Below, piece by piece: positions 2,684 to 20,900 of a DNA stretch of 64,000 nt. Positions within the stretch are counted from its first letter, which is position 1. The number at the start of each line of letters is the position of its first letter. Below the pieces are notes generated by a model. That model did no database searches and had not been told where the DNA came from. It worked only from the letters and a program-made list of their open reading frames with translations. The translations under genes were made by a program, and so were the position numbers. This DNA comes from an uncultured euryarchaeote (GTDB lineage Archaea > Thermoplasmatota > Poseidoniia > Poseidoniales > Poseidoniaceae): the NCBI GenBank assembly GCA_937899865.1, contig CALBRH010000055.1, forward strand, positions 1-64,000, in the 5' to 3' direction.

Positions 2684-3499
2684 ATGGACTTGCTCAATCA
2701 TAGTTTCCCATTTTCAAAAACTGCCCTTAATGGCAAGCATGCACTTATCTTCGGTGCAAGTAAAGGAATCGGGGCAGCGACTGCAAAAATGATGGCTATG
2801 GCTGGAGCAGATGTCACTTTGTGTGCTAGAAATTCTGAATCTCTAAAACGGGTAAAAGATGAGATTGAAACATTTGCAACAGGTAGAATTTCTTTTAGGA
2901 ATGTAGACTTAGAAGAGTTGTCAGTAATTGATGAAATCATTGATGAAATTACAACTAATTTAGGCCCTGTGCACATTCTAGTGAACAATTCGGGTGGCCC
3001 ACCTGGTGGCCCTTTACTAAAAAATTCAGTAGAAGATTTCGACGCACCATTTACTCGTCACTTACATGCTGCACATAAAATAACACAAAGATTAGTCCCC
3101 TTAATGGAATCTGAAGGCTTTGGTAGAATTATCCAAATTATTTCGACCTCTGTGAAGGAGCCAATCCCTAACCTTGGGTTATCAAATACCCTTAGAGGCG
3201 CTATGGCAAGTTGGTCCAAGTCATTATCAAGAGAATTACATCCTTGTATCACCATCAATAACGTCCTACCTGGTTTCACCGATACTGAAAGATTAGGCAG
3301 TTTAGCTGAATCAATTAATCAAAAAACTGGTAAATCAATCGATGAAATTCATGATGGATGGATGGGGCAAGTACCAATTGAGCGCCTGGTTGACCCACTT
3401 GAAACCGCTTCAGCAATTACTTTCCTTGCATTACCTTCCTCAGGAGCAATTAGAGGAGTATCATTAGCAGTAGATGGTGGCAGACTACGTAGTATCTAA
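2684..3499 (+). CDS. Short-chain dehydrogenase/reductase (SDR)
   Basis: GASKGIG Rossmann motif, NNSGGPP, STSVKEP, LSNTLR (atypical replacement of YxxxK), NNVLPG, VDGG. Confidence 0.9.
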   Translation: MDLLNHSFPFSKTALNGKHALIFGASKGIGAATAKMMAMAGADVTLCARNSESLKRVKDEIETFATGRISFRNVDLEELSVIDEIIDEITTNLGPVHILVNNSGGPPGGPLLKNSVEDFDAPFTRHLHAAHKITQRLVPLMESEGFGRIIQIISTSVKEPIPNLGLSNTLRGAMASWSKSLSRELHPCITINNVLPGFTDTERLGSLAESINQKTGKSIDEIHDGWMGQVPIERLVDPLETASAITFLALPSSGAIRGVSLAVDGGRLRSI

Positions 3500-4462
3500 T
3501 CACCGATACAAGTCAAACCATACAGGATAATGGTCAGAAACATCTGTATCATCAACCGAAGTATCAATACCCCACGAGCCCACTAATCGCCCGTTTAGAT
3601 CTCCAAGTGTAACGATTCTATCATAAGCACAATCTGTTGAGGAAACTGTTGTATCTGCAAGGTCATTAACCAACCAATTATATTGTGGTAGACGCATTGG
3701 TGACTCCCATAATTCTTGTGAGTTAGCATAACTGCAATCAGCGTTGAAATCTCCAAGAATAACTAAATCGGTTTCTGCTGAATTATTCTCGCGGTAACTC
3801 TCTACCACGTCATGTAGTGAATTTATCTCTTCAAGGGCTAGTGCAGGTTTGGTATGAACAGTAAACAAAGTAAAGTCGAATCCTGAACTATTACCACTCT
3901 CATTGAGTAATTCAAAAGTTGCAATATATGGCTCACGTTGGAAATAATCTCCTAGTGAATCATTGTATAACTGACCTTGACCGACTTCACGAAATACGGA
4001 TGTATTGTAGTAGTAAACATACTGCTCTTGTGATGATTGGTCATCTTCTTGAATCCCACTACGTGGACTCAAAGACATATTCCAAGTATTTTCTGAGACA
4101 TTATTAATCTCATCTAAGAAATCATAGGGCACTGTTTGATCAATATCTTTCACTTCTTGAACTGCGACCATATCATATTGCAAAACTGTATCAACTAATT
4201 GACTAACAACATCTGGTTTACCCATTTTTGTCTTGCCAAAAACCTTGATATTGAATGTAGCAATTCGAGCGACCTCTGAACGATTTAATTGTGGAATCTC
4301 CCTACCACCTAATTCATCTTCACCTTCGTCTTCTGATTCAGTCTCAACATAAATAAAAACAGTATTTTCCTCCTTGTGAACAATTAGGTGAATAGTCATT
4401 GGAGCGAGAATCAAAATCGCAACTAGACTCAATGCTTGGAGGTAGCCATCCATTGAACCCAT
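3500..4462 (-). CDS. Membrane-anchored DNase I-family endonuclease (EEP fold)
   Basis: N-terminal hydrophobic helix, then ATFNIKVFG, VQEVKD, FQREPY, VHTKP, GDFNADCSY, DCAYDRIV and SDHYPV, which together form the DNase I catalytic set. Confidence 0.9.
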   Translation of the reverse strand: MGSMDGYLQALSLVAILILAPMTIHLIVHKEENTVFIYVETESEDEGEDELGGREIPQLNRSEVARIATFNIKVFGKTKMGKPDVVSQLVDTVLQYDMVAVQEVKDIDQTVPYDFLDEINNVSENTWNMSLSPRSGIQEDDQSSQEQYVYYYNTSVFREVGQGQLYNDSLGDYFQREPYIATFELLNESGNSSGFDFTLFTVHTKPALALEEINSLHDVVESYRENNSAETDLVILGDFNADCSYANSQELWESPMRLPQYNWLVNDLADTTVSSTDCAYDRIVTLGDLNGRLVGSWGIDTSVDDTDVSDHYPVWFDLYR

Positions 4463-4547: not shown

Positions 4548-5384
4548 ATGAACGGAGAAGTCAGTCAAGAGCAGGCAGAGAAAATAATCGCCATGCTAAC
4601 TGAAGGTGGTGCAATAGAAAATGTCAATGCACCACTGGCGTTGAGGCTAATCCCTTTGGCTGAAGAATTAGATAACATGGAACTTGTTGAGAGATTACTT
4701 GAACATGCAAATTCATGTGCTGCTGACGAACTTGAATCAGGATGGGTTAAATTCGAGAGATTGCGATATGATAATTCATCAATTGACAACTTCGTTGAAT
4801 TGGCCGCTATAGCTGAGAAAATAACTGACGGTAGCCCACTTGCCGCGGCGGTTCTCCATCACGTAGGACTACTATACCTTGGTGCTGAACAATATGATGA
4901 TTGTCAAGTATTTACAACTCGTTCAATGCGAATTAGAGAAAAAATTGATGACAAAGCAGGTTTAGTTTACAGTTTGGCTGTTTTAGAAGCCTGTGACAAG
5001 CGACAAAATCAGCATGATTCTGCATTGATTCATGGAACTCGCAGGTTAGAGCTCTTGACGAATCTAAATGATCAAGAAGGTTTGATGGAGTCTCTTGCTG
5101 ATGTCGCCCATACCCAAGCAACATTGGGCTCATTTGATGCTGCAATTGATTTGTATACTCAATCTCTTGAGTTGTCAAATGAATTAGAAGATGTATCTGG
5201 CCAATTTGTCGCACGATGGGGCTTAGCTGACATATGTGAAATACAAGGTGATTACCAAACTGCTATGCTTCACCTATCCGATTGTCTACATTCATTCATC
5301 GCATTTGGCCTTCCAGCACCAATTCAAATTCGTCAACGTCTTGATGCTTTAACCAAATTAGAAGCCCCAAGTGAAGAAGAGTAA
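4548..5384 (+). CDS. Tetratricopeptide-repeat protein
   Basis: Repeated TPR-like helical pairs, e.g. ESLADVAHTQATLGSFDAAIDLYTQSLEL and ARWGLADICEIQGDYQTAMLHLSDCL. Confidence 0.7.
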   Translation: MNGEVSQEQAEKIIAMLTEGGAIENVNAPLALRLIPLAEELDNMELVERLLEHANSCAADELESGWVKFERLRYDNSSIDNFVELAAIAEKITDGSPLAAAVLHHVGLLYLGAEQYDDCQVFTTRSMRIREKIDDKAGLVYSLAVLEACDKRQNQHDSALIHGTRRLELLTNLNDQEGLMESLADVAHTQATLGSFDAAIDLYTQSLELSNELEDVSGQFVARWGLADICEIQGDYQTAMLHLSDCLHSFIAFGLPAPIQIRQRLDALTKLEAPSEEE

Positions 5385-5436: not shown

Positions 5437-6684
5437 ATGAAGCATGACATTTTCTTCTCGATTAGTCAAACACCTGATGTTAATGGTGTTACTCCGACTG
5501 AGAGAAAAATGTTCGAAAACTATTTCCAACAACTCAAGCATGCAGACAAATTAGGATTTGGTGTTGGGTGGATTGCTCAAGCACACTTGTCTACTGAAAC
5601 TCAAAAATCAAATTCAATGCCAGTAGTACCGCATTGGCAAGGGGAAGTTGGCCTCTGTACTGATTTTCCTCAATTGGCTATGGAGAGTTTTCGTCAGACT
5701 CAAAACATTGATATCGGCTCAGCAGTCATTAGTATATTGGCTAGTGGCGGACCTATTGCACAAGCTGAAAGAATCGCAAATACTGTCCAATTTCTTTCGA
5801 TGTTAAATGACAACCGAAAGTTGCATGTTGGTTTTAGTGCCGGAAGATTTGAATTCATGGCAAGGCCTTATGGAATTTCACCAAGAAACTCTTGGGAAAG
5901 TGCAGCATGGAAAGCACTTAGAGGGCAAATCTTCCTTGAGGCAAGTGAAATCTTTCTTAGATTATTAAAAGGTGAAATAATCTCAAGTAGTCAAATTAGA
6001 AAGACCATTTTAACTAGAGAAAATTTTCGAAGTGATGAGGATTGGCAGGCAGTTCAAGAAGCATACCTTGCGGAAAATGATGAACAAAATATAACATCAA
6101 TTACAATTCCTAACAGATATAATTTCGAAGATATTTCCATCATACCTAAACAGTGGAATCGTTCACAACTACAACTTGTCGCTGGAACACATGACTCCAA
6201 AGCACAAGAATTCGTTAATACAATTTTGCCAGTTAGAGTTTTTAATCTCTCAATAACATCTCCTAAGATCATTGATGAAACCCACGAAAGAATGATGAAA
6301 AATTATCATTCCGATGGAGGAGAATGGGAGCGCAGTTATATGCCAAGAACTAGTTTTGTATTCATCAATGATGAAGAAGGTTTGACAAATGAACAACAAA
6401 GTCAAGCCGCTAATGTTGAAGCAAAGGAAGCATTACAAGCATATTGGAATGCATTAGAAGGAACTATCGATCCCGAAAAAGTTTCCAAAGCGGCTAATAA
6501 TGCGCTGATTGGCAATCCTGCTGAAGTAGCAAAACAAATTGTCGAAAGATTCCATCCCGATGACACGATAATGGCATGGTTTGATTTCTTCAATCATGAC
6601 TCTGAACGAGTTTGCCGCAATATGACTGCATACATGACAAAAGTTGTTCCAATGGTAGAAAAGATGCTGGAGGAGTTGATATGA
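5437..6684 (+). CDS. Luciferase-like (LLM class) flavin-dependent monooxygenase/oxidoreductase
   Basis: Start MKHDIFF resembles the typical LLM N-terminus. ADKLGFGVGWIAQAH, TQNIDIGSAV, LHVGFSAGRF and ALIGNPAEVAKQI match the bacterial luciferase fold. Confidence 0.8.
   Translation: MKHDIFFSISQTPDVNGVTPTERKMFENYFQQLKHADKLGFGVGWIAQAHLSTETQKSNSMPVVPHWQGEVGLCTDFPQLAMESFRQTQNIDIGSAVISILASGGPIAQAERIANTVQFLSMLNDNRKLHVGFSAGRFEFMARPYGISPRNSWESAAWKALRGQIFLEASEIFLRLLKGEIISSSQIRKTILTRENFRSDEDWQAVQEAYLAENDEQNITSITIPNRYNFEDISIIPKQWNRSQLQLVAGTHDSKAQEFVNTILPVRVFNLSITSPKIIDETHERMMKNYHSDGGEWERSYMPRTSFVFINDEEGLTNEQQSQAANVEAKEALQAYWNALEGTIDPEKVSKAANNALIGNPAEVAKQIVERFHPDDTIMAWFDFFNHDSERVCRNMTAYMTKVVPMVEKMLEELI
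6669..6673 (+). promoter_or_regulatory. Shine-Dalgarno GGAGG for the asparaginase-like gene
   Basis: GGAGG lies 7 nt before ATG 6681, which overlaps the LLM stop (ATGA). Confidence 0.6.
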
Positions 6685-7793
6685 GTTCAGAAAAAATACC
6701 CTCTGCAGTGCGTGAAGGCAAACCGGGAAGTTCAATGTATCCTGAATCATCGCTTGGAGAAGCGGTTGAAGGTATTCCTACTGGACGAGATGTCGATTGG
6801 GAGCCATTAGTTGATTATCGTCGAAATGGAGTTTCAGAAACTACAATTCATGGTGCAGTTGCCTGGGCGCATGGCGAAGAAGTAATACACTCATTTGGCG
6901 GCAATGTTCTTTGTTATGGAAGGTCCATGATGAAGCCATTTATGCTCAAAGCTTTCACTGAAGAGTTACAAGATGCGACTTGGGAGCAAAAAGCAATTGC
7001 AGTTGCATCACACAATGGTGATACTGAACACGTTGCTACTGCTCAATCTTTACTTTCAGAAGAAGAATGGCCTTTGATGTTGACTCCTCTTGATGTACCT
7101 TTAATTCAATTTGGCAGGCAAGTTCGCCGGCCAAGAAGATGGTATCACACATGCTCTGGAGAACACTCTGCCATCCTACATGGCTGTAGAAAAAAGGGCT
7201 GGAATCGCGCAGGTTATACATTGCCTAACCACCAAGTCTTCAAAGCTTATATGGAACAAATACGCACATATCTTGGAGATGACTGGAAGCCACTTCGAGT
7301 AGCAAAAGATGGTTGTGGCTTGCCTACTGTATCCAATACCGTCTCTGAACTTGCTCAAATCTATGCTGGTCTTGTTAGAGACAAAGATGATGATTGGATT
7401 TGGGAAGCGATGGTTAAACATCCAGATTTGGTAGGTGGGTTCAACCGTCTAGACTCAACTATATTGAAAGCAGGTGAAGGTAAGGTTATCGCTAAAGAAG
7501 GGGCTGATGGATTGCTTGGATTAGCTATTGAACACCCTGATTATCCAAAAGGATTGGGTGTTGTAATCAAGATTGCACATGGCTGGAATTCTCAAGCAAC
7601 ATGGTATATTGCAAGAGCTGTACTGGGCGTCCTTGGCATTGATTTGAGGAATCCATATCCTTTACACAGACAAAAGGCATTTATCGTGCCTGGTATTGTT
7701 CCACCAAAATATGTCAAATCACTAGGGGACATAGATACATGGGATGAATGGGATCCTGACCGTGATAGATGGACTTATGATATCGAGGTGTGA
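6681..7793 (+). CDS. Class 3 (Rhizobium-type, asparaginase II family) amidohydrolase with an altered Zn motif
   Basis: GRSMMKP (Arg-Ser-x-x-Lys), ASHNG, HTCSGEH (canonical NCSGKH), DGCGLP, HPDLVGG, AKEGADG. Confidence 0.85.
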   Translation: MSSEKIPSAVREGKPGSSMYPESSLGEAVEGIPTGRDVDWEPLVDYRRNGVSETTIHGAVAWAHGEEVIHSFGGNVLCYGRSMMKPFMLKAFTEELQDATWEQKAIAVASHNGDTEHVATAQSLLSEEEWPLMLTPLDVPLIQFGRQVRRPRRWYHTCSGEHSAILHGCRKKGWNRAGYTLPNHQVFKAYMEQIRTYLGDDWKPLRVAKDGCGLPTVSNTVSELAQIYAGLVRDKDDDWIWEAMVKHPDLVGGFNRLDSTILKAGEGKVIAKEGADGLLGLAIEHPDYPKGLGVVIKIAHGWNSQATWYIARAVLGVLGIDLRNPYPLHRQKAFIVPGIVPPKYVKSLGDIDTWDEWDPDRDRWTYDIEV

Positions 7794-9235
7794 GTTTGCA
7801 AATTGAAAATTTCATTGGTGGAGAATTCATAGCACCATTGAAAAAAAACTATCTCGAAAATCTTAATCCAGCTACTGGAAAAATCACATCAAAAATACCA
7901 AGTTCTACCAAAGAAGATGTAGAAATGGCAGTCAAGGCTGCTCAAAACGCCTTACCTAATTGGTCACAACTTTCGATTGACGAGCGAATCATTTGGCTAA
8001 GAAAAATTGCTAACGCCCTGGAATCACGCAAAGAAGATGTTGCCGCTTTAGAAAGCATGGACACAGGCAAACCAATTAGTCTCGCCAAGCGAGTAGATGC
8101 TGCACGTAGTGTAAGTAACTTCGAATTTTTTGCTGAACATGCTGAGAATCTAATTGAACTGAATTACAAAATGTCTGACGCAACTAATTATGTGACCAGA
8201 AAACCTGTTGGCGTTGTAGGTCTAATTACTCCTTGGAACCTTCCGCTATACTTGCTGACATGGAAAATTGCTCCTGCATTGGTAATGGGTAATACAATAG
8301 TGGCAAAACCAAGTGAAATGACTCCACTAACCGCTAACTTACTGTGCGAGATTCTAACATCAATAGAATTCCCAGAAGGAGTGATAAATATTGTTCATGG
8401 TCTTGGACCAAGTGCTGGTCAATCTATTTTAGAACATCCAAACATCAAGGCAATCTCATTTACTGGCGGTACTGCAACTGGAAAGATTGTTGCACAAACA
8501 GCTGCACCTATGTTCAAAAAATTATCACTTGAACTCGGTGGTAAAAATGCTACCATTATTCTTGATGATGCTGACTTGCCAAATGCAGCAAAAGGTGCTG
8601 CTAGAGCAGCATTTACGAATTCTGGCCAAGTATGTTTATGTGGTTCAAGAATTCTTGTTGCTGACAACATCTATGATGAATTTGTTACTTTATTGATTAA
8701 TGAAGTTGAATCCATGACAATTGGTAATCCAAGTGATGAAAACACTGACATCGGTTCTGTAATTTCATCTGAACACATGGAAAAGGTCCTCTCATACATT
8801 GAACTTGCCAAACAAGAAGGTGGGAAAATTTCTGTGGGAGGCTCCAAGTTAACACTACCTCCTCCTAATGCTGATGGCGCATTCATCGAACCTACTCTTA
8901 TCGAAGGTTTAGCAATTGATTCCCGATGTGCAACTGAAGAAATTTTTGGACCTGTAGCATCAATTCATCGATTCATTACTGACGATGAAGCAATTGAAAT
9001 GGCTAACATCACTGAATATGGTTTAGCAGGCTCGGTCTGGACTTCAAATCCTACTCGTGGCAAATCTGTCGCTGAGCGAATAGATAGTGGTATTTTGTGG
9101 GTAAATACATGGCTTCACCGTGACCTTAGAACTCCATTTGGTGGTGTCAAAAGTTCAGGAGTAGGTAGAGAAGGTGGCGACTGGTCACTGAATTTCTTCT
9201 CTGAACTCAGCAATATATGTGTAAAAGAAGAATGA
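7790..9235 (+). CDS. amnC: Aldehyde dehydrogenase of the 2-aminomuconate/2-hydroxymuconate semialdehyde dehydrogenase (ALDH8-like) type
   Basis: ITPWNLPL, FTGGTATG, LELGGKN (Glu), GQVCLCGSR (Cys), EEIFGPV. The two substrate-binding Arg contexts of this subfamily are present (AARSVSNFEFFA, WLHRDLRTPFGG). GTG start overlaps the upstream TGA; TTG at 7796 is an alternative start. Confidence 0.8.
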   Translation: MSLQIENFIGGEFIAPLKKNYLENLNPATGKITSKIPSSTKEDVEMAVKAAQNALPNWSQLSIDERIIWLRKIANALESRKEDVAALESMDTGKPISLAKRVDAARSVSNFEFFAEHAENLIELNYKMSDATNYVTRKPVGVVGLITPWNLPLYLLTWKIAPALVMGNTIVAKPSEMTPLTANLLCEILTSIEFPEGVINIVHGLGPSAGQSILEHPNIKAISFTGGTATGKIVAQTAAPMFKKLSLELGGKNATIILDDADLPNAAKGAARAAFTNSGQVCLCGSRILVADNIYDEFVTLLINEVESMTIGNPSDENTDIGSVISSEHMEKVLSYIELAKQEGGKISVGGSKLTLPPPNADGAFIEPTLIEGLAIDSRCATEEIFGPVASIHRFITDDEAIEMANITEYGLAGSVWTSNPTRGKSVAERIDSGILWVNTWLHRDLRTPFGGVKSSGVGREGGDWSLNFFSELSNICVKEE

Positions 9236-9271: not shown

Positions 9272-9997
9272 ATGTCCGAGACTGGAACATTGCCATTGTT
9301 TGTTCTTCCAATGGTTCTTGTTCCAGGAGAGATACAAAGTCTGCGGATTTTTGAACCGCGATATAGGCAAATGCTCGATGACTGTCTGCTTGATGGCAAA
9401 CCATTTGGCATGATTATGACAGATCCTCTCGCATTCCATAATGGATGGAATGGGCCTCGAGCATTTGGATGTGAAGCAGAAATTATCAGTCATGAAACCA
9501 AAGGAAGTAATCACTTCATTGAATTTGTTGGCCGAAGACGGTTTAAAATCGACAGAGTAATCGAACCTGCTCTTCCACCTTTTGAGGATGAATCAATGGC
9601 TGATTTGATTACGGAAATTGGAATTCTTCCCGACTTAGAGACAATTCTTGAGAGAATTCCAGAAGATAGTGAACATTCGAAACTATATCTTTCAGCAGAT
9701 GTGACTTTCTTAGATGATGAACAAGAATTAACTGAATTTCAACAAACTGAATTAAGGTCTACACTTAATGGTATATTGGGTAAAATTGGTGGAATTTTGC
9801 AAATTGAAAAGGATACTTTAGAGGATTGGATTGAAGATAGAACTGCGACTGTTATTGATGAAAGTTCATCATCTATGTTTGCAGTTGCTGCATTAACTAT
9901 TAGTGACCCAGAAAATAAGTATCAATTATTATCATGTTCTGAACTGAAAGAGGTATTCCTAAAATTGACAAGATTTCTTGCAGAAATGGATGTTTAA
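9272..9997 (+). CDS. LON peptidase N-terminal (substrate-binding, PUA-like) domain protein
   Basis: LPLFVLPMVLVPGE...LRIFEPRYRQMLDDCL...FGMI and GRRRFKI. No ATPase or protease domain. Confidence 0.8.
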   Translation: MSETGTLPLFVLPMVLVPGEIQSLRIFEPRYRQMLDDCLLDGKPFGMIMTDPLAFHNGWNGPRAFGCEAEIISHETKGSNHFIEFVGRRRFKIDRVIEPALPPFEDESMADLITEIGILPDLETILERIPEDSEHSKLYLSADVTFLDDEQELTEFQQTELRSTLNGILGKIGGILQIEKDTLEDWIEDRTATVIDESSSSMFAVAALTISDPENKYQLLSCSELKEVFLKLTRFLAEMDV

Positions 9998-10049
9998 CTC
10001 AATAGATTGATAGCGTGACCTTCAAAACTCCAACGCCTGTGGTTTAACC

Positions 10050-10871
10050 ATGTCCGTTCACGGTCAAGCCAAGAAGGTCACAACTCATACGCTTCAAGAA
10101 ATGAAGCGTGCTGGTGAGAAAATCACTATGCTTACCGCATATGATTACTCACTAGCAAAATTGGTTGACAATGGCGGAGTGGATGTAATTCTTGTAGGAG
10201 ATTCGGCATCAAATGTAATGGCTGGGCAAGTTACTACAGTGCCGATGACTTTGGATCACATGATATACCACGCTCAATGTGTAAAGCGAGCTGTTGACAG
10301 AGCACTTATTGTAGTGGATATGCCGTTTGGAACCTATCAAGGTAATTCTGCAATTGCTCTTGAATCTGCTATTCGAATTATGAAAGAAGCAGAAGGTCAT
10401 GCTGTCAAGTTAGAAGGTGGGGCTGAAATTGTTGAGTCAATTAAGAGAATTCTAACTGCTGGTATTCCAGTAATGGGACATCTTGGACTTACTCCTCAAT
10501 CAATTTACAAATTTGGCACATACAGTGTTAGAGCAAAGGAAGATGATGAAGCGGCTAAGTTAATTGAAGATGCTAAAATCCTTGAAGAAGCTGGTTGTTT
10601 TGCAATTGTATTAGAAAAGATTCCCCGTGAACTAGCAAAGAAAGTAAGTGAGGCGATTAACATACCAACCATTGGAATCGGCGCTGGCCCTGATTGTGAT
10701 GGACAAGTATTGGTATTGCATGATTTGCTTGGCATAACTATGGACTTTTCACCAAGATTCCTTAGGAGATATCTAAATCTTGCAGAATCAATTGATGGTG
10801 CAGTAAAGCAATACTGCGAAGATGTTAGAACTGGCGATTTCCCTAATGATTCTGAGAGTTATACATCATAG
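10050..10871 (+). CDS. panB: 3-methyl-2-oxobutanoate hydroxymethyltransferase
   Basis: [50 protein letters not shown]. Confidence 0.97.
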
Positions 10872-11366
10872 GCCCATACTGTAAACTAGCAAAGCGCCAG
10901 AAAATGAGCCAATATCAACAGCAAATGCATGCCATACACCATACCTAAATGGTGGCAAATCATACCTTCCCCAAGAGGTAGAAATCCAAACCCATAGTAG
11001 CAAAGCACCATAGCCGCCACAAAATAATGCGCCCCATCCTGAGAACCAAACCACAAAGAAAATTACTCCAGGTAAAGCAATACCCATGCTGTACTCATAC
11101 CATCTTGATGCTTCTCCCCTTACCAGTATGAAATAAAGTAATGGAGAAAGAAGAATCGAAGTCAAAATTGCTCCTTGGGGTGGTGAAGGCCAACTATATT
11201 CGGGAGTGATATATTGCTGGAAGATAATTCCTACAATCATACCAAATAATGCTGGTGCGATAATGTGTCTTATTCCAGTATCAAAATCAATACCTCTTAC
11301 ACGGTCTAATTCTGATTCATTGGACGAGCTTGCATACTGAGATACCTCAATTTCTAACTCGTCCAT
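10866..11366 (-). CDS. Hypothetical multi-pass membrane protein
   Basis: 166-aa ORF with about 5 hydrophobic segments; its stop overlaps the panB stop region by 6 nt. Confidence 0.7.
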
Positions 11367-11453: not shown

Positions 11454-12350
11454 ATGGCGCAGGGCGAGATTGTTGCGGGCTGTTTAGCACCGCACCCACC
11501 CCACTTGGTTTATGCTGAGAATCCAGAGCAGAATGAACCGGTTGCAGAAGGTGGCTGGGAACAGCTTAGATGGGGTTATGAACGACTTAGAGACTCGCTA
11601 AAGGGGATAGAATATGATGCGATAGTAATTCTATCGCCACACTGGCAAACCTATGTAGGAACTCATTTCCTTGGACTAGAAAATTTCCAAAGTCTTTCTG
11701 TAGATCCTATTTTTCCCAACCTATTTCGCTATCACTACGACATGAATGTTGATGTTGAACTTGCTCAACAGATTCATGACAAAGCCGACAAAGCAGGTTT
11801 GACAGTCAAGATGATGACTAATCCTGATTTTAGAGTAGATTATGGAACTATTACCACAGGCCACATGTTTAGACCACAATGGGATAAGCCATTAGTGGTA
11901 ATTTCCAGTAACCGCTCAAGTGCATACTATTCAGTTGAAGTTATGCAAGAAATGATGATAGAACTTGGTAAAGCAACACGTGAAGCGATTTTGGAAAGTG
12001 GAAAGAAAGTTGTTGTATTAGCAAGTAACTCATTATCTCATCGTCATTTCACCACTGAGTCAGATATTCCAGAAGATATGAGCAAAGAGCACATTACTAG
12101 TCATGCTATGCATTTGTGGGATATGCGAATTATTGACTACATGAAATCAGGTCAATGCCAGAGAATTATTGATGAAATGCCTGAATTTACCGAACAAGCG
12201 ATTGCTGAAACAGATGGTGGAGCATTTACTTGGTTGCTATCTACTCTGGAAGTCCCAAACTATCCAGCAATTCTCCACGGATACGGCACAATTATTGGCA
12301 CTGGTAATGCAATCGTTGAGTGGCCAGTCTACAAACATAAGGAGGCATGA
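11454..12350 (+). CDS. amnB: 2-aminophenol 1,6-dioxygenase catalytic (beta) subunit, LigB-type extradiol dioxygenase
   Basis: MAQGEIVAGCLAPHPPHLVYAENPEQNEP...GGWEQLRW, SPHW, SVDPIFPNLFRY, FRVDYGTITT, SNSLSHRHF, AETDGGAFTW and GYGTIIGTGNA closely follow AmnB/CnbC-beta as I recall it. The His/His/Glu iron ligands and catalytic His and Tyr positions are present. Confidence 0.9.
   Translation: MAQGEIVAGCLAPHPPHLVYAENPEQNEPVAEGGWEQLRWGYERLRDSLKGIEYDAIVILSPHWQTYVGTHFLGLENFQSLSVDPIFPNLFRYHYDMNVDVELAQQIHDKADKAGLTVKMMTNPDFRVDYGTITTGHMFRPQWDKPLVVISSNRSSAYYSVEVMQEMMIELGKATREAILESGKKVVVLASNSLSHRHFTTESDIPEDMSKEHITSHAMHLWDMRIIDYMKSGQCQRIIDEMPEFTEQAIAETDGGAFTWLLSTLEVPNYPAILHGYGTIIGTGNAIVEWPVYKHKEA
12341..12345 (+). 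promoter_or_regulatory. Shine-Dalgarno GGAGG for the alpha-subunit fusion gene
   Basis: GGAGG lies 7 nt before ATG 12353, which supports that start (MTNGEIV, parallel to MAQGEIV). Confidence 0.6.
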
Positions 12351-12352
12351 AA

Positions 12353-13744
12353 ATGACTAATGGTGAGATTGTTGAATCATTTGTTGTACCTGTTCATCCA
12401 CACACTGTGCTGGCACCTGAACAAAATGAGGGTTGGGGCAGATTAAGAAAAGCATATGATGATGCTGCAAAAATTATCCAAGATAGTGGTGCAGATTTAT
12501 TGATTATTTATTCAACCACTTGGCCAAGTATCATTGGCCATCAAATTATTTCAGACCCTAATCCTGAATGGGTGATGGTAGATCATGACTTCCATGAGTT
12601 AGGTTCAATTCATTACTCATTCAAGATTGATGTTGAATTTGCCGAGCAATGGAATGCAGAAAACAAATCACGTGGATTACAAAGTCGATGTGTGAACTAT
12701 CATGGTTTTCCGATTGATGTAGGTTCAGTAGTTGCACTTACTCTACTAAATCCAGAAAATAAAATACCAGCAATTATCGTTTCGTCTAATGTTTATGCCG
12801 ACAGGAGTGAAACTACAGTCCTAGCTAAAGCATGCCGAGATTTGGTAAAAAGAACTGGACGTAAAGCTGTAGCAATCACTGCAATGTCCCTTTCAAATAG
12901 AATGTTCACTGAACATATCGACCCTAAAGATGACCGTATCCATTCTTTGAAAGATGATGAATGGAATCAAAAGATATTGGAATTTTTATCTGAAGGTAGG
13001 CTTGAGGATGTTGGCCAACTCTCAAGAACTATTCAGCGACAGATACGTGTTCAAAAAGTGGTTAATTTCAAGCCAATGTGGTGGTTATCTGCAATGAATG
13101 ATAATCGAAATAATTTGACTGGTAATGTTCTAGCATATGAGGGAATTCACGGCGCAGGTTGTGCTGTGGTAAATCTCAATCCTACGCCCTCTGGATTTGG
13201 TGACAAAGAATATGATGAAGATGATGTTGAAATTTTTGCTGGTGAAAGGGGCGTATTGGACTCTAACACACAACAAGAAAGTAAGATAGAAACAGACGAT
13301 GGACCTGCTTTATGGGAGCCAACTAAGGCTGAAGGTTCAGTTAATACAGATGCTGCTCCAAAACCCGTTGGTGCATATCCGCATGCAAGAAGAGTTGGTG
13401 ACTTGATTTACTTGTCAGGAGTGGGTCCAAGGCAGCCTGGAACTAATGAGATTCCTGGTGGGCCAATTCATGACAATAGCGGTAAACCTCTCAACTATGA
13501 CATAAAAGAACAGACTCATGCTGTTGTCAATAACATCGCTAGAATTCTCGAAGAAGCTGGTTCATCACTTGACAAAGTTCTCGATGTGACTTCTTTTTTA
13601 GTAGATATGGATCGTGACTTTCAAGGTTACAATGAAGTTTGGGCAGAAACCCTTGGTAAAGTTGGACCTACTAGAACTACCTTAGCAATAAGGGCTTTAC
13701 CAACACCAATTGCCGTAGAGATGAAGGTTATCGCCAGTATTTGA
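12353..13744 (+). CDS. amnA: Fusion: 2-aminophenol 1,6-dioxygenase alpha subunit + acidic linker + RidA-family (2-aminomuconate deaminase-like) domain
   Basis: The N-terminal ~270 aa (ADLLIIYSTTW, VNYHGFPIDVGSV, IDPKDDRI...DDEWNQKIL, LAYEGIHGAGCAVV) match AmnA. The C-terminal APKPVGAYPHARRVGDLIYLSGVGPR...PTRTT...IAVEMKVIA is RidA with its catalytic Arg. One continuous frame. Confidence 0.88.
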   Translation: MTNGEIVESFVVPVHPHTVLAPEQNEGWGRLRKAYDDAAKIIQDSGADLLIIYSTTWPSIIGHQIISDPNPEWVMVDHDFHELGSIHYSFKIDVEFAEQWNAENKSRGLQSRCVNYHGFPIDVGSVVALTLLNPENKIPAIIVSSNVYADRSETTVLAKACRDLVKRTGRKAVAITAMSLSNRMFTEHIDPKDDRIHSLKDDEWNQKILEFLSEGRLEDVGQLSRTIQRQIRVQKVVNFKPMWWLSAMNDNRNNLTGNVLAYEGIHGAGCAVVNLNPTPSGFGDKEYDEDDVEIFAGERGVLDSNTQQESKIETDDGPALWEPTKAEGSVNTDAAPKPVGAYPHARRVGDLIYLSGVGPRQPGTNEIPGGPIHDNSGKPLNYDIKEQTHAVVNNIARILEEAGSSLDKVLDVTSFLVDMDRDFQGYNEVWAETLGKVGPTRTTLAIRALPTPIAVEMKVIASI

Positions 13745-13872: not shown

Positions 13873-15291
13873 ATGGACATAAAATCAACCGCAGACAAAT
13901 TGCTGAAGGGTGATGTTTCGGGCGTTGTTGATGATGTTAAATCAACCATCAAAAGATCATTGACATTAGTTGGAGTAATTATTGTCACTGTAGCCGCAAG
14001 TATTGGCTCAGGGTTATTTGTCCTTCCTTCTTTTGCTGCCTCAGTAATGGGTCCAGGAATATGGTTGGCATTTTTACTGGCCGGAATCGTGTTTTTACCT
14101 GGTGCTTTGTCAAAATCAGAACTGGCTTCTGCAATGCCAGTAAATGGTGGTGCATATGTTTACCTCGAACGGTCATTCGGACCAATTATTGGAACCATTA
14201 GTGGTTTAGGATTATGGGCTTCATTTCTACTGAAATCTGCCTTTGCATTGATTGGTTTTTCCGCTTACATGTATGCGGTAACGAATTATCTTGACATATC
14301 TACTAACGCTACGTTTGTTATCATGTCTGCACTAGCATTGATTACTATACTCAATATCTTTGGTATTAAGAAAGTCAAAGCATTTCAAACACCAATCTTG
14401 GCATTAACTACAATATTGATTTTAGTCATATGTTTCATCCAATTATTCGATGCAAGTTTTGATTTTTCCCGCCCCATTGATGGAGCATTTGACGTTTCAA
14501 GAGATGACCCAGTATTGGTCGCAGAGGCTGCTGCGTTAGTCTTTGTCGCTTATGCAGGAATATACAAAGCAGGGGCTTTGGGTGGAGAAATTAAGGAACC
14601 AAAAAAGAATCTACCTGCTGGTATGCTATTATCTCTACTACTGATTACTTTGCTATATGTGGTTGTTACATTCATTATGATGGGGGCTGTAGAAGGCGAA
14701 TGGTGGGTTAATTCAGATGGTAGCCCAAGAGAAGATCCGATCTTTGCCTTCGTAGATGCTGTGGCATCGACTGAAATTGGCATTGCTATGGCGCTATTAG
14801 CTTTTCTTACAATGATTTCAGGTGCTCTATCAGGATTATTGGCTGCATCAAGATTCTTGTTTGCAATGGCCAAGGATTGTCTTTTACCAGATAATTTAAG
14901 TGAAACAAATGAGAAATTTGGTACTCCTCATTGGTCAATTATTATTACAGGTGTTGCAATGGGAATTTGCATCCTAACATTACCGGTCAAGGATGTTGCT
15001 AAATTAGCCTCAGGATTCCAAATTATGGTCATTGTAGCCTTGAATGCTTGTGTTATTATTCTAAGAAGAGAAAATCAAAAACACGAATGGTACCAACCAG
15101 AATTTAAATCTCCATTGTACCCATTTGTCCAGGTCTTTGGTATAATTGCGGGCGCAATTCTAGTCTACTTGATGGGTTCTAAAGCCATAATTGGAGCATT
15201 AGCCGCCATAGTTCTTGGACTTTCTACCTACAAAATTTATGGTGAAAAGAACTACAAGAATTTGGAAAATACAAGTTTGGAATCTGAATGA
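13873..15291 (+). CDS. APC-superfamily amino acid/amine permease
   Basis: About 12 TM helices; IGSGLFVLP, SELASAMPVNGGAYVYLERSFG, FVAYAG, GGEIKEPKKNLP, SRFLFAMAKD. Confidence 0.92.
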   Translation: MDIKSTADKLLKGDVSGVVDDVKSTIKRSLTLVGVIIVTVAASIGSGLFVLPSFAASVMGPGIWLAFLLAGIVFLPGALSKSELASAMPVNGGAYVYLERSFGPIIGTISGLGLWASFLLKSAFALIGFSAYMYAVTNYLDISTNATFVIMSALALITILNIFGIKKVKAFQTPILALTTILILVICFIQLFDASFDFSRPIDGAFDVSRDDPVLVAEAAALVFVAYAGIYKAGALGGEIKEPKKNLPAGMLLSLLLITLLYVVVTFIMMGAVEGEWWVNSDGSPREDPIFAFVDAVASTEIGIAMALLAFLTMISGALSGLLAASRFLFAMAKDCLLPDNLSETNEKFGTPHWSIIITGVAMGICILTLPVKDVAKLASGFQIMVIVALNACVIILRRENQKHEWYQPEFKSPLYPFVQVFGIIAGAILVYLMGSKAIIGALAAIVLGLSTYKIYGEKNYKNLENTSLESE

Positions 15292-15303: not shown

Positions 15304-17934
15304 TCACGAAACTCTAGTCCAAGAACCATCTGGACCAACATTCCAATATTGAATTTCACTACTGACATCAACGTACCAGCCGCTAGCACCTTGCTGGCTG
15401 GCATCTATTGCTTGCATAACTCCTAATCTACCAGCTTCAACTGCTAATCGTGTCTTTTCTTGAGGAGATAGTGTTGGCGCCATATTGGTATTCTGATTTG
15501 GTGGTGCTGATTGAGCAACTGCTGCTTCTTTTGGCTCCTCTTCGGAATAATCGTCTTCATCATCATCATAGTAGTCTTCATCATCATATTCGTCATCGTC
15601 AAACCAATCTCCATCTTCTGGTTCATAATTTGCTCTACGCACCAATACTACCATTGTTGTCAAAATCAAACCAAGCAATACTGCTGCAATTGTCATGGCA
15701 GTATTTGTCGAACCAATAGCTCCGCCAAGCAGAACAGACTCAACATCAAAGAATGCTTGAGTAACTAAACCATTCCAAGTAATGCTGCAAGATCGGTCTA
15801 AGCCAGATTTTGAAATTTCCAATTCCCAAGTATCAGATGTGATAAATTTGTCAGGACCAGAGGTACAACTAATGGTTGTGTTTTCAGGCTCAACTGGTAC
15901 TTTGTTATTGTTAATATCTACTCCATATACACGCAATAAAGCGATATCCCCTTGCTTGTAATCCTTACTCTCTATTTCACCAAACAATTGTATGGCTTGA
16001 CCTGGATTAACTATCAATGGAATAGTATGCTCTGCATTATCTTGAGAAATTGTCAAGCTATACTCTCCTGACACATTTCCGGTAAAAGTCCAGTATCCTC
16101 TACCTGCAATCGATGGAACAAATTCACCAATTGTTGAATTTAGGTTTGTTGATACTGATTCTGCAGGAGCAAGATTATTTCTTGAATCAGAAATTTGAAT
16201 GAAAATATCTGATTCTACTCCTGATTCAACTTCAAAGCCTGACTCTTGATTAGTGATTATTTGTCTAGCTTCGCCTGCAGAAACTGTTAGAGAGACTATA
16301 GAAAATACTCCGGCTGCATTAGCTTGAATCTCATGACTACCAATAGTTGTAGGAATCCAATTATAATCCAGTAAAGACATGCTCAATGTTTGATCTTCGC
16401 CATCGATTGTCCAATTAACAAATATATCACTAAGTTGATTACCATAAGAATCAAAGAACCGAGGATTCAAATCAAATGGGACATCAATAGGAATCTTTTG
16501 ACCTTGCCCATTCAATTCAATTACAGCTAGTTCTCCAAAACCTACTTGCTCGATAGATTGAGATTCGAATAAAATACCAGATGCCTCGTCAAACCAACTT
16601 CCTCTAACCGCAAATGCTCCAACTGAGTCTGGGATTAGAGTGTAGTAATCTTGTTGAGAAACTAATGTTGACTGATTACCAATCAAAACCTCTACCGAAC
16701 CATTAACGTTCCAAGTATTACCTGCTAAGTCATAGGCTTGAACTACAACTGTTGACTGTTGCCCAACTGCAAGGTTTTGAGGAGTCATTTTTATTCTTGT
16801 ATCTATTGCAAGACCGTGTTCAACTGTTACAGAAGTTGTTGAAATAAAACCTGAGTCATCCATAGAGATTGTTTGAACTCCCATAGTCATAGGAGTCCAA
16901 TACACTCTGCCATTTTCTTGACTTAATGTTCCGGAACTGACAGTGAAATTAGTAATTGGCGGAGTAATTAAGCCAGAGAAGCCAAGATTATCTGTACGGA
17001 AGGAAGCAAGTTCATACATCTCACCAGCATAATACACATCGTCATTAGGAATTATTGCCAATGAAGAGGCTGTAGCATCAGCAGGCACAACCCTAATTGT
17101 TCCAGTACCAGAGACAGGCCCTGCAGAAACTGTAACATTCCACACACCTGGATTTGAAGCATAGTAATAACCTGTATTGTTAATACTTCCATTCTCTACA
17201 AACCACAATTGTGAACCTGCAAGAGTTGTATCCATGGAATAGCCATTAACATCTACCAAATTTGGCTCCAACTGTAATGGTGAGCCGCTTCGAACCAAGA
17301 TATCATTGGCAAAAATGAATTCATAAGGCGATCCTGCGACAACTTCAACAGTTGAAGTAGCCTCCATTTGATATAACCTAGCAGTCAGTTGATAGCTTCC
17401 AATATCAAGTGGAATCCACACTGGATTGCCTTGACCAAAGTACTCTCCATCAATACTCCATGCTGCTTGATCAGTTGGATTTGGATTTCCTCTCGCATCT
17501 ATCAAATTTGCCGTAAGAATATTGTTTTGTAGAACTTGCCCAGTAGCAATTGAGATTTCAAGAGATTGTCCAATCCCAGGATTAACTGTGATGTTAAACT
17601 CATCCGTCAAATTAGTGTGCCTGGCTTGTATAGTAATTACTCCAGAGTTCCATGGATAGAAAGTACCTTCATCTGTAATTGTACCATTAGTGGAAGACCA
17701 TATTATGTTACCAGCAACTTCACTATTTACCGAATCATATAATTTAGCTGAAAAAGTAACTACTTCATCAGCGCTCATAATATATGTCGGTGATGTAATT
17801 TGAATTCTTACTGGGGAACTACTTGGCATAATTGTAGAATTATTTTCAGATAAATGGTCACTATCGAGATCAACTGGCATCGTGCTAAGTAGCATCAATA
17901 CAATGATAGAAATCGGCAGTAGTTTTCTAAACAC
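15304..17934 (-). CDS. Membrane-anchored surface protein (876 aa): signal peptide, ~8 Ig-like repeats, TM helix, acidic cytoplasmic tail
   Basis: Signal MFRKLLPISIIVLMLL; periodic D-x-x-G-N motifs every ~80-95 aa; TM AMTIAAVLLGLILTTMVVLV followed by RR and a D/E/Y-rich tail. Confidence 0.85.
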   Translation of the reverse strand: MFRKLLPISIIVLMLLSTMPVDLDSDHLSENNSTIMPSSSPVRIQITSPTYIMSADEVVTFSAKLYDSVNSEVAGNIIWSSTNGTITDEGTFYPWNSGVITIQARHTNLTDEFNITVNPGIGQSLEISIATGQVLQNNILTANLIDARGNPNPTDQAAWSIDGEYFGQGNPVWIPLDIGSYQLTARLYQMEATSTVEVVAGSPYEFIFANDILVRSGSPLQLEPNLVDVNGYSMDTTLAGSQLWFVENGSINNTGYYYASNPGVWNVTVSAGPVSGTGTIRVVPADATASSLAIIPNDDVYYAGEMYELASFRTDNLGFSGLITPPITNFTVSSGTLSQENGRVYWTPMTMGVQTISMDDSGFISTTSVTVEHGLAIDTRIKMTPQNLAVGQQSTVVVQAYDLAGNTWNVNGSVEVLIGNQSTLVSQQDYYTLIPDSVGAFAVRGSWFDEASGILFESQSIEQVGFGELAVIELNGQGQKIPIDVPFDLNPRFFDSYGNQLSDIFVNWTIDGEDQTLSMSLLDYNWIPTTIGSHEIQANAAGVFSIVSLTVSAGEARQIITNQESGFEVESGVESDIFIQISDSRNNLAPAESVSTNLNSTIGEFVPSIAGRGYWTFTGNVSGEYSLTISQDNAEHTIPLIVNPGQAIQLFGEIESKDYKQGDIALLRVYGVDINNNKVPVEPENTTISCTSGPDKFITSDTWELEISKSGLDRSCSITWNGLVTQAFFDVESVLLGGAIGSTNTAMTIAAVLLGLILTTMVVLVRRANYEPEDGDWFDDDEYDDEDYYDDDEDDYSEEEPKEAAVAQSAPPNQNTNMAPTLSPQEKTRLAVEAGRLGVMQAIDASQQGASGWYVDVSSEIQYWNVGPDGSWTRVS

Positions 17935-17948
17935 ATTTACACATCCTA

Positions 17949-20900
17949 TTACTCAGTCCATTCTATCCAATCATCGGATTCTACCTCGCGGTAATACCAA
18001 ACACCATCTTCGGTTTGACCCCATTCTGTACCATCTTCTTCAACACGATAATCAGCCATCCAACTTGTATCCTCTTCCTCAACTTCTTCCTCAACTTCTT
18101 CAACTTCTTGTTCTGGCTCCGTTTCTGGTGGTTGAGGTGGTGGTGTAGAAACTGTTGGTGCTTGACTAATTCTTGGTTGAGAGAAATCCCTTGAAATTGA
18201 TTCTTCATCATCTCTATAATAGTCTTCATCATCTTCGTCATCGTAGTAATCTTCATCGCCACGCACAAGTCGAATTACGAAAACAAGTAAAGCGACGGCA
18301 ATTAGACCGATTAAGCCTGCTCCAACATAATAAAGTGGGCCACCAGCAGCAAAGAATCCTGCTATATTCCCTTCAACATTGTAAATGAATGTCTCTGTAA
18401 TTGAACCGATTACGATTGTAGCCGAATGTTCTCCTTCATCAAGAGTTTCTAATTCCCAAACTCCGTTACCCAAATACTTCACTTTTCCTCTATCAGTAGA
18501 ATCAATTCTTGCGGAATCAGGCACAGCAATTCTATTCCAATACTCATCATAAGCTTCAACTTCAACTGTTATAGATTCTAATTGTTCTAACTCAGTAGTA
18601 CTAATATTGCTCTTTATATTCTTAACAACGCTCAATGAGAATACTTCGACATTAACCGATGAAGACAGAGTCAAATACTCTGCAGTCAATGTGTAATTTC
18701 CAGCAGATCTGCCGTTAAATTGGTACAATGCTTCAGTATCTGTTGCATTAATGTTGTATGCAGGACCATTATTTTCAAACCAAACTACAAGTTGAGGGAA
18801 TTGATTACCATCTGAGTCAGTTCCAGTCACTTGTAAATCAACAAAATTACCAGCATCTTGAGTTGTCACTGACTGTTCTAATGTCAAAGATACTGGCACG
18901 CCATGACTCACTGAAATATCAAAATTAGCAGTCAAATTAAAGCCTCTTTCATTTATCAAAAAGGCACTAATTTTCCAATCCCCAACTTCAGTAGCATGCC
19001 AAATAAGTGCATTTTGTAACATCTGATCTGAAATATCCTCAGAAGTTCCCGCTTCCAAATCATATAGAATCCATGCTGGTTGCATATTAGTAATCTGATT
19101 CAGATTTGTATCACTTGTAGAGAAGCTGAATTGAATAAATTCATCAGCAGTTATTTCATATGAGCCAACTGAACTGAATTCAACACCATTGCTATCAATT
19201 GAATCTACTACAAAATTTTCCAAGTCTCCAACTGACACATATACAACAAAATTATCAGAAATAACTACATCTAACTCTGTATGTTCGACATAAATAGTAT
19301 ATGGTGTAGAAGAAGACATAGTTGGTGAGAAAGTTATTTCTTGTGAATAATTACTACTCAAAACACTTTCATCTGCGAAATTCGGGTGGAAGAATGACCA
19401 ATTACCATCTATTAGCCATTGATTACCGTTGGAGTCTAAAGCTTTAATCGAAGCAGATATTTGCTCATCTGCAGTTATCATGAATACATCACCGTTGGAG
19501 ACTTCATCATAGATCAAAATGTCCATTTGGTTTATTTTACCCCTGGTTACGAATACTTGAATTGTTTCAGTAGAACCTTGATAAAATGCTGAAATCGATT
19601 TGGTACCTTGTAGAGTTGGCACCCATGATGCTGGAAGACCTGTTACAACTTGACCATCGGCAACCGAAGTCCAGTTTTCAATCGGTAAAATCACCGCTAA
19701 TCTATTACCTCTAACATCTATTCTTGTTGTGTTCAAATACAGAATTTCATCAGCTGATATTGAAGTTGAAGACGCTTCAAGTTCGAATGAAGCAAAAGCC
19801 CCATGAGTCACATCTACAAGAATACTATCCACCAAACTATTTTCTGATACAAAACTAATAGTTGATTGACCTACTAAATTCCCAGTATATTCACCGATTA
19901 ATACTTCTGTAGTAGGAGGTGATGTGTGTGGAGTTGGTGTACTGTATTCTATGATTTCACCGTCAGAGACACTTAATGTATAATCTCCTACATCATCAAA
20001 CCAAACTATATTTGAATATTGATCAAAAGCTGTGCCAAAAATATCACAACTAGTATCTGCGTGAATTATGTCGCCACATCCGGACAATTCTACAAGCACT
20101 GGCGCCCCTGGTAATACCTCAACTTGAAGAGTCTCTTGTAATGTGTTTGACGAACCAACCCATTCAGCAGTAACTGTATGAATACCCGCAGAATAGGGTG
20201 AAAATAGTCCGCTAGAATCTATTGAACCATTGCTTGAGAAAAAGGAAATTACTTCATTGGTGACTAAGTTTCCAAACTGATCTATTGCATATGCAGATAC
20301 TTGTAATGTATCATCTGCCGTTATTGTTGCAAAGTTAACATCCGAAGTTTGATTGAGAGATGCAAAAATTTGCATTGGCATTCCTGGTTCAATCATGATT
20401 GCATAGTCAGTACAGATTATTCCATAACAGGCTGAAACTACTTGCATTCCAGAAATAGTAGGAGAAAGTACAGCACTTTGAGTGGTCTGATTAGGTGTAA
20501 TTGACCCTGATGTAGTGCTCCATTCAATTTCTGCCATATTTGGGATACCTCCTGTTATAGCTTGACCATTTGAATCAAAGGCTTGAACGTCAAATGAATA
20601 TGAACCATCTGCATTGTAATTGACCGTTTGTGAAGTAATATTCAAAATTGAAACATTAGTATGTAAAATCTCTAATTTTGGTCTGAGATTAATATCAGAA
20701 TAATCGCTCGAGTAAACTGATACATAACCATCAAAATTACCGCCAGTACTTATTGGGGTACCCCGAATTAAGAATGTCAGTACATCACCAATTGATTGGC
20801 CGTACTCTCCTACATCAAAAGAAAACACAGTATCTAGAGAGTTATACGTTTTGACATCTAATGGTTGGGAAACAAAATCAACACCTGGCTGAGGCCCAGG

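Follow-up and report, generated by a model that had tools for sequence, protein, structure and literature searches.

We analysed a 64,000-nucleotide stretch of DNA (hereafter the window; positions 1 to 64,000 of contig CALBRH010000055.1, assembly GCA_937899865.1) from an uncultured euryarchaeote of the family Poseidoniaceae (order Poseidoniales), in which two overlapping genes encode the predicted beta and alpha subunits of a 2-aminophenol 1,6-dioxygenase of the AmnBA type, the alpha subunit being fused to a RidA-type domain. The gene pair consists of the following parts (aa, amino acids):

11454–12350, plus strand: predicted catalytic beta subunit of the AmnB/CnbCb type, LigB superfamily (298 aa from the ATG)
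12347–13201, plus strand: predicted non-catalytic alpha domain of the AmnA/CnbCa type (the first 285 or so residues of a protein of 465 aa)
13202–13324, plus strand: acidic low-complexity linker from the alpha domain to the RidA domain (no Pfam match)
13325–13744, plus strand: RidA/YjgF domain fused to alpha, candidate 2-aminomuconate deaminase (Pfam and PDB match)

A preliminary description of the locus, made from the letters alone, had placed two adjacent, overlapping beta- and alpha-like genes at 11454–13170. Both open reading frames (ORFs) are present on the plus strand and are joined by an ATGA overlap, in which the beta stop codon TGA (12348–12350) shares bases with the alpha start codon ATG (12347–12349); an AAGGAGG stretch lies just 5' of this overlap. 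The range was right for the gene pair but not for its end, since 13170 marks the end of the LigB-like domain, whereas the alpha ORF reaches 13744 and encodes 465 aa instead of the about 275 that the shorter range implied. The beta start at ATG 11454 is backed by end-to-end alignment with bacterial AmnB, which makes a longer start at TTG 11391 unnecessary. A 517-nucleotide metatranscriptome contig, 97% alike, covers the beta/alpha junction (11895–12408), and contigs 95–97% alike over parts of the cluster were found in one marine metatranscriptome study, giving a weak hint of beta/alpha co-transcription in a close relative. The host genome measures 2.0 Mb and is 91% complete, and among the other genes of the window is one for an archaeal replication factor C (RFC) subunit. 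Near-identical loci occur in Candidatus Poseidoniaceae / MGIIa-L1, and the beta gene is also carried by the closed Marine Group II (MGII) genome of 2012 (CM001443).

Comparison of beta with the PDB (phmmer, residues 1–294) revealed that its best matches are 2-aminophenol 1,6-dioxygenase beta subunits and not HpaD or other LigB enzymes, a distinction on which the preliminary description had staked its assignment beforehand. The matches comprised 8ihg_A (AmnB; 4e-114), 3vsg_B (Comamonas CnbCb; 2e-109) and 7txy_B (Micromonospora; 3e-88), and the next enzyme class, HpaD (8iq8_A), which was the sole other LigB enzyme among the matches listed, gave only 1.8e-7. Beta is 56% identical to CnbCb in tblastn and 54–58% identical to AmnBA/CnbC-type betas, and its Pfam LigB match has an E-value of 1.8e-22. 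NCBIfam holds no model for the AmnB family; the top match there was TIGR02298 (HpaD_Fe) with 82 bits, below the cut-off of 316. All motifs ascribed to beta in the preliminary description (APHPPH, SPHW, DYG, SHRH and AE) are found in it. In an alignment of 30 archaeal and 5 bacterial betas with pCNB CnbCb/CnbCa, window residues H14, H63, E252 and H196 fall in the columns of CnbCb H13, H62, E251 and H195, and these four columns are invariant. From the 3VSG–3VSJ work, we take CnbCb H13, H62 and E251 to be the iron ligands and H195 the catalytic base. Clade-specific differences between the archaeal and the proteobacterial betas are limited to six positions, none of them an obvious charge change. 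Beta thus appears to be a genuine catalytic Fe(II) subunit of the AmnB/CnbCb type with a 2-His-1-carboxylate site.

The alpha subunit, over its first 285 residues, likewise found aminophenol dioxygenase alpha subunits as its best PDB matches, 3vsg_A (CnbCa) at 5.7e-42 and 7txy_A at 2.9e-36. The preliminary description had found the metal and catalytic positions missing from it, and they are: STTW is present, and V, T, Q and N occupy the ligand and base columns of beta, where CnbCa carries G, Q, D and G. Alpha is therefore best read as a paralogous subunit that is predicted to be metal-less. Enzymes of this type are alpha2beta2 assemblies that perform an O2-dependent 1,6-cleavage of 2-aminophenol. 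Their subunits are reported to be insoluble if each is produced by itself (PMC10470539).

The C-terminus of alpha contains a RidA/L-PSP domain (Pfam PF01042, 2.1e-24, residues 335–464), whose best PDB match is 6izh_A at 2.7e-25, the 2-aminomuconate deaminase AmnE of Pseudomonas sp. AP-3 (PMC6742747). In its R-T motif the domain retains the conserved Arg, and it is 43% identical to the product of the RidA gene directly upstream of amnB on an Ensifer plasmid. Together with this pathway-specific deaminase, the comparisons above provide strong sequence evidence for assignment to the AmnBA family. A RutA/RutB-style opening of a heterocycle was also considered and not adopted; the RidA domain matches RutC at 3.9e-5, far below AmnE/Rid at 2.7e-25, and RutA ranks 50th among the fold matches of the luciferase-like protein encoded upstream (see below). 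Public names conceal the family. The fusion protein is annotated as 'Rid family hydrolase' only, and its homologue listing is dominated by near-identical MGII proteins; RefSeq names clear amnB/amnA genes on Pseudomonas veronii and Ensifer plasmids 'tRNA U-34 5-methylaminomethyl-2-thiouridine biosynthesis protein', apparently a misnaming that keeps the family out of sight in public databases.

To describe its distribution, we label the families f1 (that of the window), f2, f3, f4 (same class but the sister order, with genomes of 1.0–1.4 Mb, presumably Marine Group III) and f28 and f30 (more distant Thermoplasmatota families). Beta was found in 193 of the 201 sampled Poseidoniales genomes, in 60 of the 61 of high quality, and in all 24 genera. 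In a phylum-wide survey of 251 Thermoplasmatota genomes, it was present in f1 (35/35), f3 (17/18), f4 (5/8), f28 (8/8) and f30 (1/1), and in none of about 40 other families. A maximum-likelihood (ML) tree united the 30 archaeal betas in one clade (support 100/99) whose subclades track taxonomy, and five proteobacterial betas stand apart from it (99/98). A search of representative sequences for the family yielded no more than 36 clusters at E <= 1e-30, most of them fragments, a set of little value for tree building. The survey across Poseidoniales that had been proposed for the pair identified a core gene that the order has inherited vertically. Across Poseidoniia, and in certain other Thermoplasmatota, the module is old and was passed on by vertical descent; it is no pollutant island. 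Alpha and RidA are fused in f1, f2, f28, f30 and some f3 genera; in many f3 genera and in f4 the protein is split around the linker into two adjacent, overlapping genes. In bacteria a separate RidA gene lies immediately upstream of amnB, and in archaea RidA follows alpha. From this pattern of fusion and splitting it can be argued that both parts act together. The fusion constitutes a natural Rosetta-stone link and suggests channelling of unstable 2-aminomuconate intermediates.

The genes on either side of the pair bear on its role, and are as follows (SDR, short-chain dehydrogenase/reductase; LLM, luciferase-like monooxygenase; ALDH, aldehyde dehydrogenase):

7790–9235, plus strand: 2-aminomuconate-6-semialdehyde dehydrogenase (AMSDH)-like ALDH of the AmnC/NbaE type (PDB match, residues)
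6612–7793, plus strand: class 3 (Rhizobium etli type) asparaginase-II-like amidohydrolase (Pfam PF06089, 5.6e-48; start/stop overlap with the ALDH gene)
5437–6684, plus strand: divergent LLM flavin monooxygenase (weak Pfam/NCBIfam LLM matches; the listed ORF starts at GTG 5371)
2684–3499, plus strand: SDR oxidoreductase (Pfam adh_short, 1.3e-36; part of the operon in f4, the sister order, and in f28/f30)
13873–15291, plus strand: APC-family amino acid permease, candidate importer (Pfam AA_permease_2, 2e-40; directly downstream of alpha-RidA)
1884–2645, plus strand: alpha/beta hydrolase upstream of the SDR gene (Pfam BD-FAE / Peptidase_S9; syntenic in f1 only)
9272–11366: LON N-domain protein, PanB and a small membrane ORF (minus strand), between ALDH and beta (Pfam)

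In f4 and in f28/f30, the genes form a compact, overlapping run without inserted genes, in the order SDR, LLM, asparaginase-like, ALDH, beta, alpha, RidA, so that the ALDH/RidA upper module, which is encoded with the dioxygenase, is contiguous in the sister order and f28. Pfam searches for tryptophan 2,3-dioxygenase (TDO) revealed that TDO is the ORF immediately upstream of SDR in the same run in four f4 genomes, and that it abuts the LLM gene in three f28 genomes. In one f28 genome (L129:3784-4911, plus strand), a 375-aa ORF without Pfam or NCBIfam match lies between TDO and LLM. The ORF after alpha-RidA in f28 matches arylformamidase (TIGR03035) with 209.5 bits, just under the cut-off of 223. 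In f4 the same place is taken by a formyltransferase-fold protein whose gene overlaps the RidA gene (Formyl_trans_N 8e-9 and 1e-11; L122:6751-7560 and L123:4036-4752, both minus strand), and this protein might handle the formyl group of N-formylkynurenine. The co-distribution points in the same direction: every family with beta also has TDO, and within f4 five genomes carry both beta and TDO, and two (97% and 91% complete) carry neither. The genome of the window itself encodes a TDO (PF03301, 1.4e-58), alone on contig C63. Operon structure in relatives and co-distribution make tryptophan catabolism via kynurenine the likely physiological role. The earlier idea that the locus reveals a natural substrate for the enzyme family gains strength from the core-gene status and from the operon link to TDO and a putative kynurenine formamidase in relatives.

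Three of the upstream proteins deserve closer description. The ALDH has 4i1w and 4npi (AMSDH) as its best PDB matches (4e-139), ahead of generic aldehyde dehydrogenases, with identical residues at 4i1w R120, E268, C302 and R464, the substrate arginines being kept; it is 45% identical to CnbD. The asparaginase-like hydrolase matches PDB 7os3 at 1.2e-15, its S-x-x-K motif and both Cys positions align, and wherever an operon contains the LLM and ALDH genes, the hydrolase gene adjoins them. For the LLM protein, an AlphaFold2 model (pLDDT 86.7) matched luciferases, RslO1 and 4uwm in Foldseek at 1e-13 to 6e-11, the last of these being the type II Baeyer–Villiger enzyme 3,6-diketocamphane monooxygenase. 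A cluster of neighbours of the LLM protein in the Atlas consists mostly of bacterial members, with Bdellovibrionota as the most frequent phylum.

The conserved order in f1 is alpha/beta hydrolase, SDR, TPR, LLM, asparaginase-II-like, ALDH, (LON-N), PanB, small minus-strand ORF, beta, alpha-RidA and APC permease, and most of the Poseidoniales loci that were examined have the permease gene downstream of the dioxygenase genes. The genes at 9272–11366 are probably unrelated to the dioxygenase cluster, because they are absent from the operon of f4 and f28/f30, where ALDH abuts beta. As a kynurenine formamidase, the alpha/beta hydrolase at 1884–2645 is a weak and unsupported candidate, since PDB and NCBIfam give generic esterases only. 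A TPR protein (4548–5384, plus strand) lies between SDR and LLM in f1 only and is absent from the operons of f4 and f28/f30, and a 320-aa protein of the endonuclease/exonuclease/phosphatase family (Pfam 3e-8) is encoded at 3500–4462 on the minus strand. Very large minus-strand ORFs occupy 15304–27200 and 49095–63998 (876, 3083 and at least 4967 aa), and many Poseidoniales loci have paralogues of the 876-aa protein on the flanks of the cluster.

Searches for the remaining steps of the canonical kynurenine pathway gave mostly negative results. The best kynureninase scores in five genomes across the clades, two of them single-contig, were 22–51 bits, where the cut-off is 246. Neither the family (Amidohydro_2) of the decarboxylase for ACMS (2-amino-3-carboxymuconate-6-semialdehyde) nor a cyclase-type formamidase was found in MGII or sister-order genomes, closed or near-complete ones being searched. 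When kynurenine 3-monooxygenase (KMO) was sought among FAD_binding_3 matches, the best candidate in this genome proved to be geranylgeranyl reductase. NadA and quinolinate phosphoribosyltransferase (QRPTase) are present, and a role of the cluster in NAD biosynthesis is not needed given these two; NAD supply would be independent of the pathway, because the quinolinate route via NadA is present. The sole FAA_hydrolase-family protein of the genome is a YcgM-like protein of 211 aa (G000:C65:29545-30096; L014:1462-2097), whose gene neighbours those for ribosomal protein S8e and SRP19; no other protein came up as a candidate for a step like that of 4-oxalocrotonate decarboxylase.

Taken together, we consider it probable that the locus encodes an AmnBA-type aminophenol dioxygenase, with alpha fused to a RidA-type deaminase, that serves a non-canonical route of tryptophan/kynurenine catabolism. 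The beta/alpha enzyme would open the ring of an ortho-aminophenol next to the hydroxyl, the AMSDH-like dehydrogenase would oxidise the resulting aminomuconate semialdehyde, and the fused RidA domain would release ammonia to yield 2-oxohex-3-enedioate. Most simply, the aminophenol cleaved would be 2-aminophenol itself, because the AMSDH keeps its substrate residues, no ACMS decarboxylase was found and only six positions of beta are clade-specific. We infer that the LLM protein, the asparaginase-like hydrolase and the SDR stand where canonical kynureninase and ACMS decarboxylase would be.

Several points weigh against this assignment or narrow it. The activity of the archaeal AmnBA is predicted from comparison of sequences. 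No known kynurenine-pathway enzyme is assigned between kynurenine and the ring-cleavage substrate. At the lower end, 4-oxalocrotonate decarboxylase (DmpH), the 2-oxopent-4-enoate hydratase (DmpE) and 4-oxalocrotonate tautomerase (4-OT) gave no tblastn match at 1e-3, in a search with pCNB queries of the 91%-complete genome that did not include the aldolase and the acylating dehydrogenase. The cupin 3-hydroxyanthranilate 3,4-dioxygenase (HAO) had no match in the genome, but the positive control gave none either. TDO also occurs in Thermoplasmatota families without AmnB, and in the family of the window it lies on another contig, the operon link being borrowed from relatives. Few bacterial sequences entered the tree (five proteobacterial ones and two representatives), too few to give the direction and age of any transfer between domains or to tell which domain had the gene first. 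Finally, RNA contigs from metatranscriptomes can contain DNA.

How kynurenine might be turned into the ring-cleavage substrate can be proposed more specifically from gene content and the LLM fold. We put this proposal forward tentatively and with more doubt than conviction: Poseidoniia and some other Thermoplasmatota would break down tryptophan via free 2-aminophenol, by a route not described before. TDO and a formamidase would produce kynurenine, into whose aryl ketone the LLM enzyme would insert oxygen in a Baeyer–Villiger reaction, giving a beta-aspartyl ester of 2-aminophenol. This ester would readily shift to N4-(2-hydroxyphenyl)-asparagine, from which the asparaginase-II-like hydrolase would release L-aspartate and 2-aminophenol, and AmnBA, AMSDH and the fused RidA domain would take the ring to 2-oxohex-3-enedioate and ammonia. 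If true, the route would explain why kynureninase, KMO, HAO and ACMS decarboxylase (ACMSD) were not found and why the operon holds on to asparaginase-type and LLM enzymes across three classes, and it would name the natural substrate of the AmnBA family. Full-text literature searches found no paper that connects Poseidoniales or Marine Group II with the metabolism of aminophenol or kynurenine, and none linking kynurenine to Baeyer–Villiger chemistry leading to aminophenol.

The main alternative keeps the tryptophan context but changes the substrate: the enzyme would act as a non-cupin functional analogue of HAO, or would cleave 3-hydroxykynurenine directly, with the LLM protein as a kynurenine/anthranilate 3-hydroxylase and a substrate bearing a carboxyl or ketoacyl group. 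We regard this as distinctly unlikely. It accords with established chemistry, the regiochemistry being the same (cleavage next to the hydroxyl and distal to the amino group), with TDO and kynurenine formamidase in the operon of relatives, and with the missing cupin HAO match, although the control of that search was also empty. However, as neither kynureninase nor ACMS decarboxylase was found, 3-hydroxyanthranilate would remain unmade and ACMS would remain unprocessed ahead of an AMSDH with canonical substrate arginines. Moreover, the six clade-specific positions relative to 2-aminophenol-active bacterial betas include no new basic residue for a carboxylate, and NAD is makeable through NadA and QRPTase. 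The Pseudomonas JS45 enzyme reportedly did not accept 3-hydroxyanthranilate, which also counts against such an analogue.

It is highly improbable that a catechol-type LigB extradiol dioxygenase, similar to HpaD or to a protocatechuate enzyme, has been misread here as an aminophenol enzyme. The below-cut-off HpaD_Fe match in NCBIfam, which lacks an AmnB model, could suggest such a misreading, as could the turnover of catechol by AmnAB enzymes (PMC10470539); against it, AmnB leads HpaD by about 100 orders of magnitude in the PDB comparison, and the marker fused to alpha is the pathway-specific 2-aminomuconate deaminase and no tautomerase, 4-OT being unmatched. The gene for this deaminase has been used to separate aminophenol loci from catechol loci (PMC10470539). 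The chance that the locus is a recent bacterial xenobiotic (nitroarene/aniline) cassette, or bacterial contamination of the metagenome-assembled genome, is virtually nil and the idea already refuted by distribution: characterised relatives are indeed carried on conjugative IncP plasmids of pollutant degraders, but beta occurs nearly throughout the order with synteny kept beside the archaeal housekeeping genes PanB and RFC, the archaeal betas are monophyletic in a clade that follows taxonomy, the GC content around the genes is the same as in the rest of the window, the partial pCNB nitroreductase gave no match, and no transposase was present among the flanking ORFs examined.

2-Aminophenol 1,6-dioxygenase has so far been treated as a pollutant-degradation enzyme with an unclear natural substrate, and a testable physiological role can now be offered. 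Marine Group II archaea rank with the most abundant heterotrophs in surface seawater, and a tryptophan/kynurenine sink in the ocean is predicted. The analysis also points to a missing stretch of the route from kynurenine to the ring-cleavage substrate, occupied by three unassigned enzymes and no known kynurenine-pathway step.

The preliminary description had taken the enzyme as known from nitroarene-degrading Pseudomonas and Comamonas. Characterised relatives are indeed found there, but the family is not confined to these organisms, as it also occurs in Burkholderia xenovorans LB400 (PMC3790839) and in an actinobacterial microcompartment (PMC10470539). With AmnBA/CnbCaCb of Pseudomonas sp. AP-3, P. 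pseudoalcaligenes JS45 and Comamonas CNB-1 (3VSG–3VSJ, 8IHG), the locus shares adjacent paralogous genes for LigB-type subunits with beta first, metal and base residues that are identical in beta and lost in alpha, and a RidA deaminase and an AMSDH-type dehydrogenase encoded alongside. It differs in that the deaminase is fused to alpha, whereas it is a separate gene upstream of beta in those bacteria, and in being an archaeal chromosomal core gene and not plasmid cargo. The lower amn genes (4-oxalocrotonate decarboxylase, hydratase) were not found here, and the nitroreductase and mutase of the bacterial upper pathway are replaced by TDO, LLM and the asparaginase-like hydrolase.

The ARO microcompartment enzyme of Micromonospora rosaria (7TXY; PMC10470539) shares the early module of AmnBA, aldehyde dehydrogenase and deaminase, and also belongs to non-pollutant organisms. 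According to its authors, the true inducer there is an upstream precursor of 2-aminophenol (PMC10470539); here, a candidate precursor, tryptophan, is named by the operon. Shell genes accompany the ARO enzyme but not the archaeal one, and the beta of the window matches 7txy_B less well than it matches the proteobacterial enzymes. The canonical lower branch of the kynurenine pathway (Burkholderia cenocepacia, the nba genes of P. fluorescens, and fungi; bioRxiv 10.64898/2026.06.05.730449) has the same start, TDO and formamidase, and the same predicted end, in which AMSDH and a RidA-family 2-aminomuconate deaminase lead to 2-oxohex-3-enedioate. Between them the two diverge, since kynureninase and ACMSD were not found in the archaea and no KMO candidate emerged among the FAD_binding_3 matches checked, and since the ring is cleaved by a cupin enzyme in the canonical branch and would be cleaved by a LigB-type heteromer here. 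For the proposed route to free 2-aminophenol, an analogy exists in the 4-hydroxyacetophenone pathway of Pseudomonas fluorescens ACB, in which a Baeyer–Villiger monooxygenase and an esterase lead to hydroquinone. The logic would be alike, with an aryl ketone (kynurenine) turned into a phenol (2-aminophenol) by oxygen insertion and subsequent hydrolysis, but the ACB enzyme is a type I FAD monooxygenase, whereas the archaeal candidate is of the LLM type and the hydrolase is another one. Compared with all these systems, the kind of enzyme is known, and what is new is that it belongs to the core genes of an archaeal order, that alpha is fused with the deaminase and that the tryptophan context is non-canonical.

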